NCBI GenBank assembly: GCA_046292385.1
Contig: JBKBRF010000029.1
Location: forward strand, 1 to 64,000
DNA: 64,000 bases
Direction of reading: 5' to 3'
Source: Armatimonadota bacterium
GTDB lineage: Bacteria; Armatimonadota; SYMT01
Position numbers and translations under genes: made by a program
The notes under the pieces: model-generated
What the model saw: the letters and a program-made list of their open reading frames with translations, nothing else
Database searches by the model: none
What the model was told of the DNA's origin: nothing
Part shown: positions 5,833-39,019 of the stretch, in pieces
Position numbering within the stretch: position 1 is the first letter of the stretch
How the letters are laid out: each line of letters opens with the position of its first letter

Positions 5833-5891
5833 AATCGGGGTGCGCGGATTTGAACCGCGGACCTCTGCGTCCCGAACGCAGCGCTCTACCA
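5833..5891 (-). repeat. att site: 59-bp duplicate of the tRNA-Pro 3' portion
   Basis: Exact match to 28148-28206; lacks the tRNA 5' acceptor strand and part of the D-arm. Confidence 0.95.
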
Positions 5892-6021
5892 GACAAACTT
5901 GCCCGAGAACTGGACCCAACGCAACAATATCAATGCCGAGGGAACGGGTTCAACACCATGCTCGAAGCTACCCACAAGCGCTTGAAGGTCTTGAACCGGT
6001 CATCCCGCAGCTTGCTTCAGT

Positions 6022-28149: not shown

Positions 28150-28223
28150 TCGGGGTGCGCGGATTTGAACCGCGGACCTCTGCGTCCCGAACGCAGCGCT
28201 CTACCAAGCTGAGCCACACCCCG
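28150..28223 (-). tRNA. tRNA-Pro(CGG)
   Basis: CGGGGTG acceptor stem, D-loop GCTTGGTAGAGC, anticodon arm CTGCG-TTCGGGA-CGCAG, T-loop GGTTCAAATCC; CCA not encoded. Confidence 0.96.
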
Positions 28224-32607: not shown

Positions 32608-35094
32608 ATGCGCTCCCACCAAACGCCCGCCTCCCGCTCCCGGCTCCGCATCCTGGCCCCCGTGCTTCTGCTGGTCGCCCTGCCGGGGGCCTTCCTATTT
32701 CCGTATCTGTTCCTGGGCCGGTCGATGGTGCCGCTCGACATGCTGCCGGGGTTCCAGCCGTGGGTGCGGCACGCCGCGAGCCTCTGGCCGGCGGAGGTCT
32801 GGACTCCCGGACAGCTCCCCCACAACCCGCTGCTCGACTCGATCCAGCAGTACTTCCCTCGCCGGGTCTACTTCTCCGGCGCGCTCTCCGGCGGCTGGCT
32901 GCCGCTCTGGAACCCATACGTTTACGCCGGCAGTCCCTTCGCGGGGATCCAGCAAGGCGCGCTGCTCTACCCGCCGGCATGGCTCCTCGCCCTCTTTCCT
33001 CCGGAGCAGCAGTTCGGGTGGTCCGCCTTTCTCCACCTCTCCCTGGCGGCAGTCGGGAGCTATCTCTTCTTCCGCCAGATGGAGCTGCGGCGCGCCGCGG
33101 CGGTCGCGGGCGGGGTCGCCTTTGCGTTCAACGGCTTCATCGTCGTCTGGCTCGCCTATCCGAACGTGACACAGTGGACCCTCTGCTGGCTGCCGCTGGC
33201 CCTCTTCCTGTGGGAGAAGGGCCGCGAGCGGGACGATCTCCGCTGGATTGCCGGCTCTGCCGCCGCGCTGGGGCTTAGCCTGCTGGGCGGCCACGCGCAG
33301 AGCTCCGCGTACGTGCTCCTGGTCTGGGCCGCCTGGGCGCTCTACCGCTGCCTCACTTCCGGGCGGCCGCTCTCCGCGCTGGCGCGCTGGGCCGCGCTGC
33401 CGGGCACGCTCGCCGTGCTCTTCGCACTGGGACAGCTCCTGCCGGCGTTCGATTATCTGCCGCGGACCGACCGTTCCGGGCGGCTGCCGTGGGAGGCAGT
33501 CCTGGCGAACGGGATGCCGCCGAATCAGCTCTGGACCCTCATCCTGCCGCGGCTCTTCGGAGACGAGACGGCGGGCTTCGGCACGCTGCCGAGCTGGCTC
33601 AACGGGTACGATACCAGTCCGTACGCCCGCCTCGCCTTCCTCGAGCGGAGCTTCTACCCCGGCGCGGCCGTGCTCGTGCTCGCGGCCGGAGCCTGGGCGG
33701 CCCGGCGGCTTCCGCCGGAGTACCGGCGGCTCGCGCTCTTCTCTTTGGTGCTGGCGGTCGGCGGGATAGCCATGGCTCTCTTTCCGCCGCTCTACTGGCC
33801 GCTCTGGCGCTTCGCCCCCGGGTTCGGACACCTCACCGCCTGGGCGCGCATCATCTGCATCGCCGCGTGGGGCCTGGCAGGTCTTGCCGCGCTCGGAGTG
33901 CACGCGCTCGGCGACGCCGACCCCCTCGTCCGGCGCTCCGCGCTGCGGGGTATCGCCGCGGCCGCCGCCCTCGGGGCGGTGGTAGCGATCGCCGGTTACA
34001 TTCTCCACCCGGTGCCGCTCCCAGTCGACGAGACGCTTCAGCGCCAGGGACTTCCGGCGGCCGACCCGCAGCTCACCCGAGACTTGCTCCTCGCGCTGGG
34101 CTGGCTCCTGCTGCCGGTCGTGATCGCGCTGCTTTCGCTGCCCCTGCAGCAGCGGCAGCGCCCGGTGCTGCAGCCCGCGCTCGCCGCGGCAGCGGCTGTC
34201 GTGGTGATCGCGGCCGACCTCTTCACCTTCGGCTTCGGCTTCAATCCCCGCGCCGATCCCCGCTTCCTCACCGCCCAGGTGCCGGAGTTGCAGGCGGTGA
34301 CGGCGGAGCCGGAGGCGTTCCGCTTCCTCTCCGTGGGGCCCGGGCCCGATCCGATGCGGCACCTGCACGAGCGAATGCCGTCCAACCTCCCCTCCGTGTT
34401 CGGGTTGGCGGACGCGCTGGGAAGCGACTCGTTCGTCTCGAAACGCTACCGCCAGTGGGAGCGCGCGCTCTCGCGGGCGACCGGCGAGGGACCGTGGTCT
34501 CGCCCCGGCGCGGCGAACCTGCGCGCCGCCGGCGTGCGCTACTACCTCACCGGCGCGAAGGAGCCCTTTTCCGGACTGGAAGAAGTGGTCGGCACCGGCC
34601 TGCAGCGAGATCCGCGCGCGCTGCCGTACGCACGGCTCCACCCGTTCGCGCAGGCGCTCCCGTCCGAAGCCGCCGTGCTGGAGAACCTGGCGAACCCGAA
34701 CCGCTCTCCGCTCGTGGCCCTCGTCGCGGGACCGGACGCGCCCACGTTTTCGAACCCGGGCCCGGTGACGCCGTTCACCGTGCGGCGGCGGAACGGGAAC
34801 CGGCTGGTCCTCGAGGGGGAGGCGCCGTCTTCGGGACTGCTGGTGGTGGCCGAGCAGTACGAGCCGGGCTGGCGCGTGGCCGTGAACGGCCGGCCGGCTC
34901 GCCTCTTCCCGGCCGACCATCTTTTCGTCGGCGTGCCGCTGGAGGCAGGCCCGCAGGTGGTGGAGCTCACCTACCAGCCGGCGCCCTGGCGGGTGGGGCT
35001 CTTCGGCACGCTCGCGGCGCTGGGGGCACTCTGCGCGCTCCTCGTCGGAGCGCGTCCGCGCCGTCCGGCAAAACTTTCTACCGCCGACGTTTGA
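32608..35094 (+). CDS. YfhO-family (GT-C fold) membrane glycosyltransferase-like protein
   Basis: G.LPLWNPY..AGSPF, LLYPP, GGH.Q, many TMs, E.Y.PGW...VNG, V.L.Y.P. Confidence 0.85.
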   Translation: MRSHQTPASRSRLRILAPVLLLVALPGAFLFPYLFLGRSMVPLDMLPGFQPWVRHAASLWPAEVWTPGQLPHNPLLDSIQQYFPRRVYFSGALSGGWLPLWNPYVYAGSPFAGIQQGALLYPPAWLLALFPPEQQFGWSAFLHLSLAAVGSYLFFRQMELRRAAAVAGGVAFAFNGFIVVWLAYPNVTQWTLCWLPLALFLWEKGRERDDLRWIAGSAAALGLSLLGGHAQSSAYVLLVWAAWALYRCLTSGRPLSALARWAALPGTLAVLFALGQLLPAFDYLPRTDRSGRLPWEAVLANGMPPNQLWTLILPRLFGDETAGFGTLPSWLNGYDTSPYARLAFLERSFYPGAAVLVLAAGAWAARRLPPEYRRLALFSLVLAVGGIAMALFPPLYWPLWRFAPGFGHLTAWARIICIAAWGLAGLAALGVHALGDADPLVRRSALRGIAAAAALGAVVAIAGYILHPVPLPVDETLQRQGLPAADPQLTRDLLLALGWLLLPVVIALLSLPLQQRQRPVLQPALAAAAAVVVIAADLFTFGFGFNPRADPRFLTAQVPELQAVTAEPEAFRFLSVGPGPDPMRHLHERMPSNLPSVFGLADALGSDSFVSKRYRQWERALSRATGEGPWSRPGAANLRAAGVRYYLTGAKEPFSGLEEVVGTGLQRDPRALPYARLHPFAQALPSEAAVLENLANPNRSPLVALVAGPDAPTFSNPGPVTPFTVRRRNGNRLVLEGEAPSSGLLVVAEQYEPGWRVAVNGRPARLFPADHLFVGVPLEAGPQVVELTYQPAPWRVGLFGTLAALGALCALLVGARPRRPAKLSTADV

Positions 35095-35119
35095 GGAATT
35101 CCGCCCCGGGTATGATTTC

Positions 35120-35430
35120 GCTGGAACGAGGAACGCTCGATCCGGTTCTGATAAGAAGCGAAGACGAGGAACGGACGTCAGGAAAGCCGGACAGGGAACA
35201 CACGGGATCTGGGACACTACAACCGCATAACGGCAGCACAACTGAAGAACGGCACACAACTGAATAGACAACCGAAGAACATGCCGCTCTCCGGAGCGGA
35301 AGGACAACAGAAGAACGGCAACCGGCCGTGGTTATGCGGTCGCACAACTGAACACGAGATGCGAACAACGGCCCCTCGGGGTCGACACAATAGAGAGAGG
35401 GCGGTGAGGCTTGCGCTTCACCGCCCTCTC
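35120..35430 (+). ncRNA. Candidate structured sRNA with repeated GGA and ACAACNGAA motifs
   Basis: TATGAT -10 at 35111; 9 GGA in 35121-35220; at least 5 ACAACNGAA; 10-bp long-range helix; 16-bp terminal stem. Confidence 0.6.
35395..35430. terminator. Strong hairpin ending the candidate sRNA and convergent DUF1501 gene
   Basis: GAGAGGGCGGTGAGGC-TTGC-GCTTCACCGCCCTCTC. Confidence 0.75.
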
Positions 35431-35456
35431 GGCGTCTCATCTGCGTTTCGGCTGGC

Positions 35457-36839
35457 TCACACCAGCTCCCGGATGACCTCACCTTCGCCGGCGATCTCCC
35501 ACGGCCGGCCCTGCGGGTCGTGGAGAATGGTGCCGGGCGAGACGCCCATCTTCTGGTAGATCGTCGCGATCAGGTCGATCGGGCGCAGGCGGCGTTCGTC
35601 CGCGTATCCGCCGTCCGCCGTCGTGGAGCCGATCACCTGCCCGCCGCGCACTCCGCCGCCCGCGGCGACGACCGACATCGCGTGCGGCCAGTGGTCCCGG
35701 CCGCTGTCCGGCGCCTCGACCTTGGGGCTGCGGCCGAACTCGCCCATCCAGAGGACCAGCGTCTCCTTCAGCAGGCCGCGGTCGTCCATGTCCCGCAGGA
35801 GCGCGCTGAACGCCTGGTCGAGCGTGGGGCAGAGATGGTCCCGCATCCGGGCGAGCGCCCCGATCTCGATCCCCTGCGCCATCAGGTTGCCGTGCGTGTC
35901 CCAGTTACCCGTGGAGACGGAAACGACCGGCACGCCTTTCTCCACCAGGCGCCGGCCCAGCAGGAACGCCTGGCCGAAGCCGTTCTTGCCGTAGTCTTCC
36001 TTCAGCTTCTCCGGCTCGCCGGAGAGGTCGAACGCCTCCCGCGTGGCGCTGGAGGTCACCAGCCCATACGCCCTCCGCTGGTACTCGTCCAGCGTGCTCG
36101 CCGCCAGCTCCCGGTCGGCCAGTCCGGCCGCCCCGTCGATGATCCGCGCGAGGCGGCTGCGGCGCTCCAGGCGGCCACTGGTCACGTTGGGGGGCAGCGG
36201 CAGGTCGTTCAGCACGTAGCCCTGCTTGTCGCTTCCGGTCATGCGCAGGGGCGCGTACGCCGGTCCGAGCCGCTCCGGGTTGTCGTAGTAGACGTAGTTG
36301 AAGCCGCCGATGCCGTACGTGCCGTAGCTGCGGATGCTGATCAGCGGCGGCAGCGCGCTCTGCGGCGGGAGAGTTCGGGCGAGCACGGAGCCGAAGTAGG
36401 GCGCCGCCTGCGCGGGGTTCCCCTGCGAGTCCGGACGGCCGGGCGCGACTCCGGTCTGCATCCAGTGGTCCGCCGCCGTGTGGCCCGGCTCCTGGTGGTA
36501 GATCGACCGGATGATCGCGTACTTGTCCGCAATCTTCGCCATCCGCGGCAGCCACTCGTGGATGCGGATGCCGGAGACGTTCGTCGGAATCGCCGAGGAG
36601 GGGCCGCGGTAGGCTTCGGGGGCGTCCGGCTTGGGATCGAACGTCTCGTAGTGGCTCGGCCCGCCGCCCATCCAGAGCAGCAGTACCGCCTTCGCCTGCG
36701 GAGCCGCGGCGCCGGCAGCCCGGCCCGCCAGCAGCGTCGGCAGCGTCAGCCCGCCGAGCCCGAGCGCGCCGACCCGGACGAAGTCCCGCCGGGTGAGTCC
36801 ATCACAGTAGACCGACCGCCCTCTCCGGATCTCCAGCAT
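35457..36839 (-). CDS. DUF1501 family protein (Tat-like RR motif)
   Basis: CDGLTRRDFVRVG.LG, LWMGGGPSH.ETFDPKP, FGQ..LL.RRLVE.GV, WDTH, GEFGRSP, GRDHW. Confidence 0.9.
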   Translation of the reverse strand: MLEIRRGRSVYCDGLTRRDFVRVGALGLGGLTLPTLLAGRAAGAAAPQAKAVLLLWMGGGPSHYETFDPKPDAPEAYRGPSSAIPTNVSGIRIHEWLPRMAKIADKYAIIRSIYHQEPGHTAADHWMQTGVAPGRPDSQGNPAQAAPYFGSVLARTLPPQSALPPLISIRSYGTYGIGGFNYVYYDNPERLGPAYAPLRMTGSDKQGYVLNDLPLPPNVTSGRLERRSRLARIIDGAAGLADRELAASTLDEYQRRAYGLVTSSATREAFDLSGEPEKLKEDYGKNGFGQAFLLGRRLVEKGVPVVSVSTGNWDTHGNLMAQGIEIGALARMRDHLCPTLDQAFSALLRDMDDRGLLKETLVLWMGEFGRSPKVEAPDSGRDHWPHAMSVVAAGGGVRGGQVIGSTTADGGYADERRLRPIDLIATIYQKMGVSPGTILHDPQGRPWEIAGEGEVIRELV

Positions 36840-36987
36840 CGCCGCCTCCCCAGTAGTCCTGCCATTCGGACAACGGCCGGAGGCGCCGGTTTCAGGGAGT
36901 GCGGTAGAGAACGTGTGCCGACTGTGACTGTTCGCCAGCAGGCTGCTTCCGCCAGCCCTTCGGGTGGAGGCACCATTCCCCGAATCT

Positions 36988-37521
36988 GTCATTCTGAGCC
37001 GCAGGCACGGCCGAGAGCCGGCCACGCCCGAAGAAACGATCCCTAGCCCTGACGACCGCCCGACGGCTTTCCGCTTGACCCGCCACTCACCGTAAGCAGT
37101 CATTCTGAACGCAGTGAAGAATCTCGGCAGCCGGCTTGGTCCGGAGCACGCATCGGGGCGACGAGGACACGGCCTGGCGGAGCGCTCCCGAACGCGGGTG
37201 CTCACCGTACCTCCGGAGAGCCGAGTGACGTAGATCCTTCACTGCGTTCAGGATGACCCTCGGGGGCGGAGCTGTGCTCCCGCAGGGCTGACGCCGATCC
37301 GGTGATGCTGGCTCGCGGGGGAGTTTCTTGAGAACGCAGGGAAGAATCTCGGCAGCCGTCCTGGTCCGGAGTACGCATGCTCGTGACGAGGACAAGGCCT
37401 GGCGAGGCGCTCCCGAACGTGCGGGCACACCGTCTCCTCGAAGAACCGAGTGACGGAGATCCTTCACTCCGTTCAGGATGACCCCCGGGGAGTAGAGCCG
37501 CGCTCACGCAGGGCCGACGCC
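36988..37521. repeat. Cluster of REP-like palindromic elements in a degenerate ~225-bp tandem duplication
   Basis: GTCATTCTGAACGCAGTGAAGAATCT (37099-37124) inverted to AGATCCTTCACTGCGTTCAGGATGAC (37232-37257); second unit about 37323-37482; extra GTCATTCTGAG at 36988. Confidence 0.8.
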
Positions 37522-37630: not shown

Positions 37631-38893
37631 TTAGTCGCCGCCGCCGCGGAGGGTCTTGTCGACGATCTTGAGGAACTCGTCGTTGCTGGTGGTGTTCTTC
37701 AGGCGGTCGATCAGCAGCTCGGTGGCCTGGACGGTATCGAGCGCGGCGAGGGCGCGGTGGAGCTTCCAGACCTGCTTGAGGGTCGCCTCGTCGTGCAGGA
37801 GCTCGTCGTGGCGGGTTCCGGAACGCTTGATGTCGATCGCGGGGAAGATGCGGCGCTCCTGCAGGTCCCGGCTCAGGTGGAGCTCCCAGTTGCCGGTGCC
37901 CTTGAACTCCTCGAAGATCATGTCGTCCATCCGGCTGCCGGTATCGACCAGCGCCGTGGCGATGATCGTGAGGCTGCCGCCCTCTTCGATGTTCCGCGCG
38001 GCACCGAAGAACCGCTTGGGGCGGTAGAGCGCGGCGGGGTCGAGGCCGCCGGTGAGGGTGCGGCCGCTGGGGGTGACGGTCAGGTTGGAGGCGCGGGAGA
38101 GGCGGGTCAGGCTGTCCAGCAGGATCACGACGTCGCGGCCGCTCTCGACCAGGCGCTTCGACTCTTCCAGCACCATGTCGGCGACGCGGCTGTGGTTCTC
38201 CGGAAGCTCGTCGAAGGTGGAGCTCACCACCTGCCCCTTCACGGACCGGCGCATGTCGGTCACTTCTTCCGGGCGCTCGTCCACGAGCAGGACGATCAGG
38301 AACACCTCCGGGTTGTTCTGCGTGATCCCGTGCGCGATGTTCTTGAGCAGCGTCGTCTTACCGGCCTTCGGCGGAGAGACGATCAGGCCGCGCTGCCCCT
38401 TTCCCACCGGGGCGATCAGGTCGATGAAGCGCCCGCTGATGTTGTCCCCGCTCGTCTCCATCTGGAGCCGCTCGTTGGGGTAGACGGTGGTGAGGTCGGC
38501 GTAGTCCTTGCGCTGCCGGGCGCGGTCCGGGTCCATGCCGTTGACCGCTTCCACGCGGAGAAGCCCGTAGTACTTCTCGTTCTCCTTCGGGGGCCGCACC
38601 TGGCCGCTCACCCAGTCCCCCGTCTTCAGGCCGAAGCGCTTGATCTGGGATTGGGAGACGTAGATGTCGTCCGCCGCCGGCTGGAAGTTGTCGTGCCGGA
38701 GGAACCCCCACCCGTCGGAGAGGATCTCGAGCACCCCCTGGCCGTAGATGAGCCCGCTGTTCTCCGCCTGGGTCTGGAGAATCTTGAAGGTGAGGTCCTG
38801 CTTCCGCAGCCGGTCGATGTTCTCGATGTTCAGCTCCCGGGCGATTCCCTGAAGCTCCGCGACTGTCTTCGATTCGAGCTCGGCGAGTTCCAT
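37631..38893 (-). CDS. rho: Transcription termination factor Rho
   Basis: [45 protein letters not shown]. Confidence 0.98.
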
Positions 38894-39019
38894 GACCACC
38901 TCGGTCGATGCGAGGGAAAAGGGGTGCGGTCCGCGAGGTGAGCGGTATGCCGGAACAGCGCGGCGGTGAAGCGGACGGGGAAGACGACGACGGCGCGCGG
39001 AGCTGCGCGCCTCAAGGCG

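Follow-up and report, generated by a model that had tools for sequence, protein, structure and literature searches.

A stand-alone RNA gene of an Armatimonadota bacterium with a predicted SigB-type promoter and repeated units resembling part of the rRNA-leader nut element

RNAs that titrate a regulator by offering it many exposed copies of a short motif are known in bacteria; in CsrB/RsmZ and CrcZ the partner is a translational regulator, and paralogs share a dedicated promoter. 6S RNA, which resembles open promoter DNA and binds sigma-70 holoenzyme via a conserved fold, ties up the transcription machinery as growth slows by mimicking one of its nucleic-acid ligands. In the nut anti-termination sites (boxA, spacer, and boxC) of ribosomal RNA (rRNA) operons (rrn) and of lambda, the boxA core (UCCUU or GCUCUUU) is bound by NusB/NusE. 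The SigB-dependent small RNAs of Firmicutes, among them SbrE/Rli47 (Listeria) and RsaA (Staphylococcus), act by base pairing. Here, we report a stand-alone noncoding RNA gene of about 310 nucleotides (nt), on the + strand and apparently undescribed, in an Armatimonadota bacterium (GTDB lineage SYMT01; assembly GCA_046292385.1, contig JBKBRF010000029.1). It lies in the 64,000-nt stretch that was analyzed (positions 1 to 64,000 of the contig; hereafter, the window) and carries an array of units that resemble part of the nut element behind what appears to be a SigB-type promoter.

The gene occupies the intergenic region between two convergent genes, one YfhO-like (32608-35094, + strand) and one encoding a DUF1501 protein (35457-37205, - strand), in a 7.04-megabase assembly that is 98.45% complete (genome G000, to which contigs C7, C8, C18, C19, C46, and C67 below also belong). 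As the original prediction from the bare sequence had observed, the region is an A-rich island in a high-GC genome: it is T-poor (AT skew, +0.33 to +0.70), with a GC content of 0.54-0.58 against about 0.70-0.76 in the flanks. The pattern ACAAC[TCA]G[AC]A occurs 117 times on the two strands of the whole genome, and its clustering in the window is far beyond chance, because the array there (6 copies in 126 nt) is the sole cluster of at least three copies (gaps of at most 60 nt) genome-wide. Three overlapping open reading frames (ORFs; 35281-35559 on the + strand, 35217-35390 and 35078-35482 on the - strand) were rejected as coding because the relatives of the region have the units alone in common and are separated by many indels.

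No Rfam 15 family reached its gathering score in the window. Positions 34950-35600, searched at E-values up to 10, gave 12 matches, most of them on the closing hairpin alone (best E-value, 0.68); none was to a Csr, Rsm, or CrcZ model, and 6S RNA was not matched at the locus. Searches of 32 related loci at the gathering score and of 10 more at E-value thresholds returned nothing that spans the arrays. The original prediction, which did not recognize a named family, agrees with these Rfam searches. By BLAST, the window RNA is single-copy in its own genome.

Contigs assembled from the RNA libraries of four public runs (soil and plant samples) cover 35141-35388, 35150-35223, 35194-35358, and 35212-35364 with 0-6 differences, which is compatible with expression in nature; such contigs reveal neither ends nor strand, RNA libraries may hold DNA, and runs X15 and X16 may not be independent because identical contigs occur in both. 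The four runs held no near-identical contig on 34600-35094, 35457-35900, or the stem at 35392-35435, an absence that carries no evidential weight, and the pieces on 35629-35773 were just 33-50 nt long, at 90-95% identity, and came from other organisms. In one 272-nt contig (X17), position 35388 is joined directly to 24 nt that duplicate the contig's own version of 35166-35189; a relative with a tandem copy, a circular or permuted form, or a chimera made during reverse transcription could each account for this junction.

Six copies were recovered in the class: the window RNA, a paralog on C19, one each in the relatives G004, G005, and G006, and one on metagenome contig L196. BLAST of the region against 41 relatives gave matches of 23-29 nt only, of which those in two same-family genomes led to the related RNAs of G004 and G005. 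The G006 copy was found with the two-unit pattern described below, and the L196 copy was found by a metagenome scan, in which a 21-mer retrieved four loci only. The paralog, which is shorter than the window RNA, was found by a unit-matrix scan of the genome (C19, - strand, about 29400-29060; L209). Its purine-rich 5' part includes GUUAGGGAC...GGAACACACGGACAACCGCAUAG; besides the promoter (GTTTGA-N13-GGGTAG), it has two to three units, a GC hairpin, and a U-run terminator. BLAST of this paralog in eight class genomes returned chance matches in coding DNA only. The six copies are poorly alignable except in the promoter, the units, the purine-rich 5' part with its GGGAACAC(AC)GG box, and a small C(U/C)UCG hairpin. 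Their neighbors are an esterase and DJ-1/PfpI in G004, an M20 peptidase in G006, and topoisomerase IB and Ldh_2 in G005; the L196 copy has the same DJ-1/PfpI-type neighbor start as G004. The four scanned copies (window, G004, G006, and G005) thus stand beside different genes, and the gene therefore moves with its own promoter. These relatives, the RNA-library contigs, and an array of mostly unpaired motifs like those of titrating RNAs bear out the earlier proposal of a stand-alone RNA with a promoter of its own.

On sequence grounds, that promoter is assigned to the SigB (general-stress sigma) type. The pattern GTTTNN-N13-GGGTA(T/G) stands before 6/6 class copies (in the window, GTTTGA-N13-GGGTAT at 35089-35113). 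The published SigB consensus is GTTTAA-N12-14-GGG(A/T)A(A/T), with GTTTAA-N14-GGGTAT for Pctc (PMC8346170, PMC9847131). The genome encodes seven sigma factors of the SigB/F/G subfamily (L199-L205) above the curated TIGR02980 cutoff, an unusually large set; among the control genomes, only B. subtilis scored above it. Genome-wide, GTTTNN and GGGTAT are separated by N13, N14, or N15 at 5, 11, and 7 places, and by the control spacings N10, N18, or N22 at 3, 1, and 0 places (reversed pattern, 1). At 11/27 array loci of the phylum (the six class copies plus L007, L008, L250, L259, and L260), a relaxed SigB-like pattern is found upstream and in sense orientation; the counts are 0/27 for antisense and 0/27 for downstream. 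The TATGAT that had been proposed as a -10 box is indeed present, not as a plain sigma-70 box but as the tail of the GGGTAT element. The likeness to the SigB-dependent RNAs of Firmicutes ends with this GTTT-N-GGGTAT type of general-stress promoter: the sequences are unrelated, the Firmicutes RNAs work by base pairing, the phylum is different, and seven SigB-family sigma genes are present here. C8:80580, which has a similar promoter, was rejected as a third paralog since it drives an mRNA.

The repeated unit is 15 nt long, gA(C/A)AACUGAAUAGCG, with the consensus gA(C/A)AACUGAAUA(G/A)CG over 92 units from 18 regions, in which AA and AAUA are near-invariant. Scored with a matrix built solely from small-RNA arrays, the six window units reach, in order, 16.9, 18.0, 19.5, 14.4, 15.9, and 8.8 bits. 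A strict two-unit pattern occurs at 31 places in 24/401 genomes of the phylum (reversed control, 4 places); about 15 of 24 two-unit pattern matches are intergenic arrays that end in a terminator, and the remainder are coding or chance. A three-unit sequence model detected arrays in 24/151 phylum genomes and 22/95 genera, most of these genomes having been unused in building the model. The same kind of array is present in a Chthonomonadaceae metagenome-assembled genome (MAG; Armatimonadota by NCBI taxonomy). Outside the phylum, an Oscillospiraceae MAG has two stand-alone array loci, Bifidobacterium tissieri has three, each between a stop codon and a terminator, and Bifidobacteriaceae arrays were counted at 22 places in 14/101 genomes (control, 6 places).

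Units also stand directly 5' of cyclic di-AMP (c-di-AMP) riboswitches at five loci (L024, L029, L195, L253, and L255) and of cyclic di-GMP-I (c-di-GMP-I) riboswitches at two (L254 and L256, both with tandem c-di-GMP-I aptamers). The recurring layout of these leaders is a promoter, a 5' hairpin, two to three units, and then the abutting cyclic-dinucleotide aptamer; at L029, a 6S RNA gene (1005-1189, - strand, 75 bits) follows on the same strand about 180 nt downstream of the c-di-AMP riboswitch. Long simple tandem repeats of 8-9-nt units (AACTGAAT or AACCGAAT; L038-L117) are a different thing from the spaced unit arrays and were set aside; they make up most of the at least 120 public-genome matches to the three-unit pattern and are frequent intergenic features of Bacteroidota, of some Planctomycetota, and of other groups. 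Two lone units were noted elsewhere in the genome, a strong one (AAAACUGAAUACG) at C67:17094 (- strand) in the spacer of two tRNA genes upstream of rpmG, and one at C46:44226 (- strand) abutting the Shine-Dalgarno sequence GAGGGAG of an ORF.

The unit resembles the nut element of the rRNA leaders of the class. An identical, outward-facing contig-end sequence follows TTGAC-type promoters at C8:1-124 (- strand) and C18:119299-119445 (+ strand); the homologous element of four relatives is near a contig end in every case (94-257 nt away), and in G001 and G003 it continues into the beginning of 16S rRNA. Because of their position near contig ends and these two cases, the sequences were taken as rRNA leaders; 16S rRNA was not found in the assembly of the bacterium itself. 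The boxA-like region of the class leaders reads (A/U)UC(C/U)UUGAAAACU(A/G)AACAG(U/C)G. In 6/6 leaders (five class genomes), the best match of the unit matrix is GAAAACU(A/G)AACAG(U/C)G, at 10.6-16.3 bits, with 12-14/15 positions identical to GAAAACUGAAUAGCG; among 1,500 random 450-nt genome chunks, 10 reach at least 10 bits and 2 at least 13 bits. The best match in 3/3 Bifidobacterium rrn leaders is GAGAACUCAAGAGCG (11.8 bits). We therefore read the unit as a copy of the 3' half of boxA and the following spacer, without the boxA core: neither UCCUU nor UCUUU stands 5' of the units, whereas the class leaders have the core, and the units begin at the GA(C/A)AAC that comes after it. The unit differs from nut sites further in being repeated three to nine times and in its location, which is a stand-alone RNA, a 3' region, or the 5' side of a riboswitch instead of an rRNA leader.

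Of the factors considered, NusA seems, from its published ligand, to be the only one whose documented target matches the unit. In the crystal of Mycobacterium tuberculosis NusA with RNA, AGAA lies on KH1 and CUCAAUA on KH2, together AGAACUCAAUA (PMC1635273, Table 1). The 11-mer ACAACUGAAUA of the consensus unit is identical to this ligand at 9/11 positions, AUA included, and the A, U, and A are conserved at 100, 82, and 100% in the consensus unit; a further likeness is the single-stranded state, which for the unit is predicted. According to PMC2724277, boxC-derived RNA binds both KH domains in extended form, its AUA being especially critical; E. coli NusA contacts the spacer beside boxA and not boxA itself, and a C-terminal domain masks RNA binding in the E. 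coli protein. The NusA of this bacterium (378 amino acids) matches PDB 2asb_A, the RNA-bound M. tuberculosis construct, at 224 bits; its matches to E. coli chains stop at about residue 340, so that no C-terminal repeat domains were matched. The nusA leader (C7:84800-85000, - strand) contains two consecutive terminator-like hairpins with U-runs, which would fit autoregulation by attenuation. At L068, a Pyrinomonadaceae contig, three units precede by about 70 nt an ORF whose start looks NusA-like by eye, the sole such case.

The units are predicted to be exposed. In the minimum-free-energy (MFE) fold, computed on 35118-35440 against 100 shuffles, the z-score is -4.97 and 0/100 shuffles are as stable; the mean unpaired probability in the window is 0.71 for the unit cores and 0.44 elsewhere, and across the window RNA, G004, and L196 the corresponding predicted values are 0.71-0.74 and 0.42-0.44. 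The MFE fold includes the 10-base-pair (bp) long-range helix, the small hairpin, and the 16-bp closing stem of the original prediction. All eight of its motif and helix strings (TATGAT, five motifs, and two helix arms) are present where it had placed them, as are the degenerate copies at 35219, 35365, and 35387 and the CCGCTC/GAGCGG hairpin (Table 1). The 10-bp helix holds for the window RNA and is not a feature of the family: its 3' arm is missing in four aligned relatives and in the C19 paralog, and it has no counterpart in the other class copies because ACCGCAUAAC is merely one variant of the unit.

Taken together, we tentatively interpret the RNA as a decoy that is induced by stress and offers multiple sites mimicking the rrn nut element, with NusA as the most likely factor titrated, and would put this at somewhat under an even chance. 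A stress sigma factor, once active, would have the RNA transcribed from the SigB-type promoter. The RNA body would then present six to eight mostly single-stranded copies of the 15-nt unit, i.e., of the nut part without the boxA core, and for the factor that reads the nut element these would be competitors of nascent rRNA leaders and of other nut-like sites. NusA, or whichever factor does so, would be titrated away from rRNA leaders and other nascent transcripts, and where the unit lies in cis before riboswitches or terminators, it may tether the same factor to the elongating polymerase. It is conceivable, with less assurance, that stress-sigma-driven nut mimics in general titrate NusA, lower rRNA anti-termination, and reset termination genome-wide, with the 15-nt unit also serving in cis as a portable tether of NusA ahead of cyclic-dinucleotide riboswitches and terminators in at least three bacterial phyla.

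If true, the general stress response would be linked directly to rRNA transcription elongation, and sequence-specific RNA binding by NusA would gain a physiological use beyond rRNA leaders. The RNA would be a decoy for the elongation machinery and so a counterpart of 6S RNA, which serves initiation; the analogy with 6S RNA is functional only, as the mimic here would be of a nascent-RNA site and is predicted to be unstructured and multicopy. An unannotated 15-nt module that recurs in Armatimonadota, Oscillospiraceae, and Bifidobacterium, in small RNAs, 3' regions, and riboswitch leaders, would likewise be accounted for. Should the partner prove to be a different protein, the RNAs would still make up a clearly bounded new class of small RNAs, with a distinct motif, one type of promoter, and relatives that lend themselves to experiment; the Bifidobacterium carriers in particular permit direct tests. 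The titrating architecture is already known; novelty lies in the motif, promoter, lineage, and proposed target. Limited full-text searches and passages of a review turned up no NusA-sequestering or nut-mimicking small RNA, nor the unit motif.

Several observations weigh against titration of NusA by a nut decoy. The six class leaders are homologous and so count as one observation and its conservation, not as six independent ones. The six window units are only 7-9/15 identical to the rrn element of their own genome and 9-11/15 to that of G001 and G002, and AUA is kept in only two of them, the other four having AGA or ACA. Of the four rrn leaders scored in two other phylum families, a single one reaches 10.2 bits and the others stay at 4.5 or below, and no unit was found in the rrn leaders of G027 and G040 rrnA. 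The resemblance to the NusA ligand was verified against secondary sources only. Single units give 69 matches genome-wide, compared with 54 when the matrix is reversed and 76, 59, and 51 when its columns are shuffled, and no regulon of single units was found. A unit was found in the nusA leader of 1/30 phylum genomes, and the nusA leader of the bacterium itself has none; autoregulation of nusA through the units was accordingly not borne out.

Also on this side are other single-strand RNA-binding proteins. An alternative that we consider unlikely is that the RNA is a decoy for KhpA/KhpB, Hfq, or ribosomal protein S1, with the rrn resemblance reflecting shared use of that protein or coincidence. 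The genome encodes KhpA/B-type KH proteins (two matches, 74 and 41 bits) and two Hfq genes above the cutoff; KhpA/KhpB are described as global small-RNA binders without a defined sequence motif; and array architecture is typical of protein sponges. Set against this, no known motif of KhpA/KhpB, Hfq, or S1 matches the unit, and the RNA (35118-35440) contains 0 AANAANAA motifs and a single run of three ARN triplets. The KhpB crystal holds a C-rich 10-mer with contacts mainly to the backbone. Hfq is an unlikely partner if the Bifidobacterium arrays are the same phenomenon. To our knowledge, actinobacteria generally lack Hfq.

A second alternative, which we rate as rather improbable, is that the units act in cis only, as nut-like loading sites that tether NusA or a Nus complex and tune pausing or termination at the next hairpin, the small RNA being a leader/terminator module or a by-product. 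The units directly 5' of the seven riboswitches and those between stop codon and terminator in Bifidobacterium favor a cis role; most arrays end in a terminator hairpin, and some class copies are followed by a co-directional gene (DJ-1/PfpI in G004 and L196; M20 peptidase in G006). In the window and in G005, however, the next gene is convergent and leaves nothing downstream to control, six to nine copies exceed the need of a loading site, and a single dedicated promoter of the stress type, common to both paralogs, gives the appearance of a regulated product.

Base pairing is less probable again: the RNA could be a regulator, or a sponge for another RNA, with the units as multiple seeds, and some multi-seed small RNAs do have repeated exposed motifs, as the units, predicted to be unpaired, would be. 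Matches to the unit matrix on both strands show no excess over controls, so that no enriched complementary motif was seen, and in the rrn leader the unit is matched by the sense strand and not by its complement.

The two-domain sponge of the original prediction, in which a GGA half titrates CsrA and an A-rich half an Hfq/Crc-like factor, is very improbable, since CsrA (PF02599) gave 0 matches in 4/4 class carriers (the bacterium itself, G004, G005, and G006; found in the controls E. coli, B. subtilis, and T. maritima) and the CrcZ motif AANAANAA is missing from the RNA. Nine GGA do occur in the 100 nt of the 5' part, the 5' parts of the relatives are likewise purine-rich with GGA, and Hfq is encoded, but the GGA enrichment is weak: nine was reached by 5/2,000 mononucleotide shuffles of 35118-35217 (mean, 3.7) and by 84/2,000 dinucleotide shuffles (mean, 6.1). 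The likeness to CsrB/RsmZ and CrcZ thus lies in the many exposed copies of a short motif, presumed here to bind protein, and in paralogs that share a dedicated promoter. The unit itself is neither GGA in hairpin loops nor AANAANAA, there is no sequence or Rfam relationship, and the proposed partner is a transcription elongation factor instead of a translational regulator. The likeness of the unit to the rRNA-leader nut element, missed in the original prediction, points to a different partner.

Table 1. Parts of the RNA gene, in positions of the 64,000-nt window
Feature	Position	Strand	Remarks
-35 element GTTTGA	35089..35094	+	SigB-type promoter (predicted); overlaps TGA stop of YfhO-like gene
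-10 element GGGTAT	35108..35113	+	Overlapped by the earlier TATGAT box, 35111-35116
Inferred transcript, ~310 nt	35122..35435	+	Start from promoter geometry, end from closing stem
Purine-rich 5' part, nine GGA	35118..35217	+	Contains conserved GGGAACACACGG box, 35194-35205
Array of six 16-nt units	35218..35358	+	Unit starts 35218, 35237, 35255, 35267, 35303, 35343
Motif strings	ACAACTGAAGAAC 35238, ACAACTGAAT 35256, ACAACCGAAGAAC 35268, ACAACAGAAGAAC 35304, ACAACTGAAC 35344	+	
5' arm ACCGCATAAC of 10-bp long-range helix	35222..35231	+	MFE fold; window-specific
3' arm GTTATGCGGT of 10-bp long-range helix	35331..35340	+	MFE fold
Small GC hairpin CCGCUC-UCCG-GAGCGG inside array	35284..35299	+	MFE fold
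Degenerate unit ACAACGG, hairpin GGCCC-CUCG-GGGUC (35370-35383), degenerate unit ACAAUAGAG	35365..35394	+	
16-bp stem, 4-nt loop	35395..35430		Likely RNA 3' end/terminator; + strand without U-run

Some of these parts recur in the class. The GGGAACACACGG box and its junction to the first unit are common to the window, the C19 paralog, and G004, and also to L196; a GC hairpin lies within the array in each relative, at variable position; and the hairpin with a UUCG or CUCG loop that follows the array is shared with G004, L196, and G006. The degenerate unit in the segment around that hairpin scores 5.2 bits. The closing stem probably also terminates the convergent DUF1501 gene (- strand tail, UCUAUUGU); the terminator scan listed it on neither strand. 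In G004 (L003, about 1620-1700) and L196 (about 420-500), an extra long imperfect hairpin, missing in the window RNA, stands between array and terminator, with apparent compensatory changes (AUGC/GCAU versus GAAC/GUUC). Elsewhere in the window, the rho gene (37631-38899, - strand) lies beyond the DUF1501 gene, and there are two tRNA matches, one weak and truncated in the model (5843-5899, - strand, 30.5 bits) and the other at 28150-28223 (- strand).

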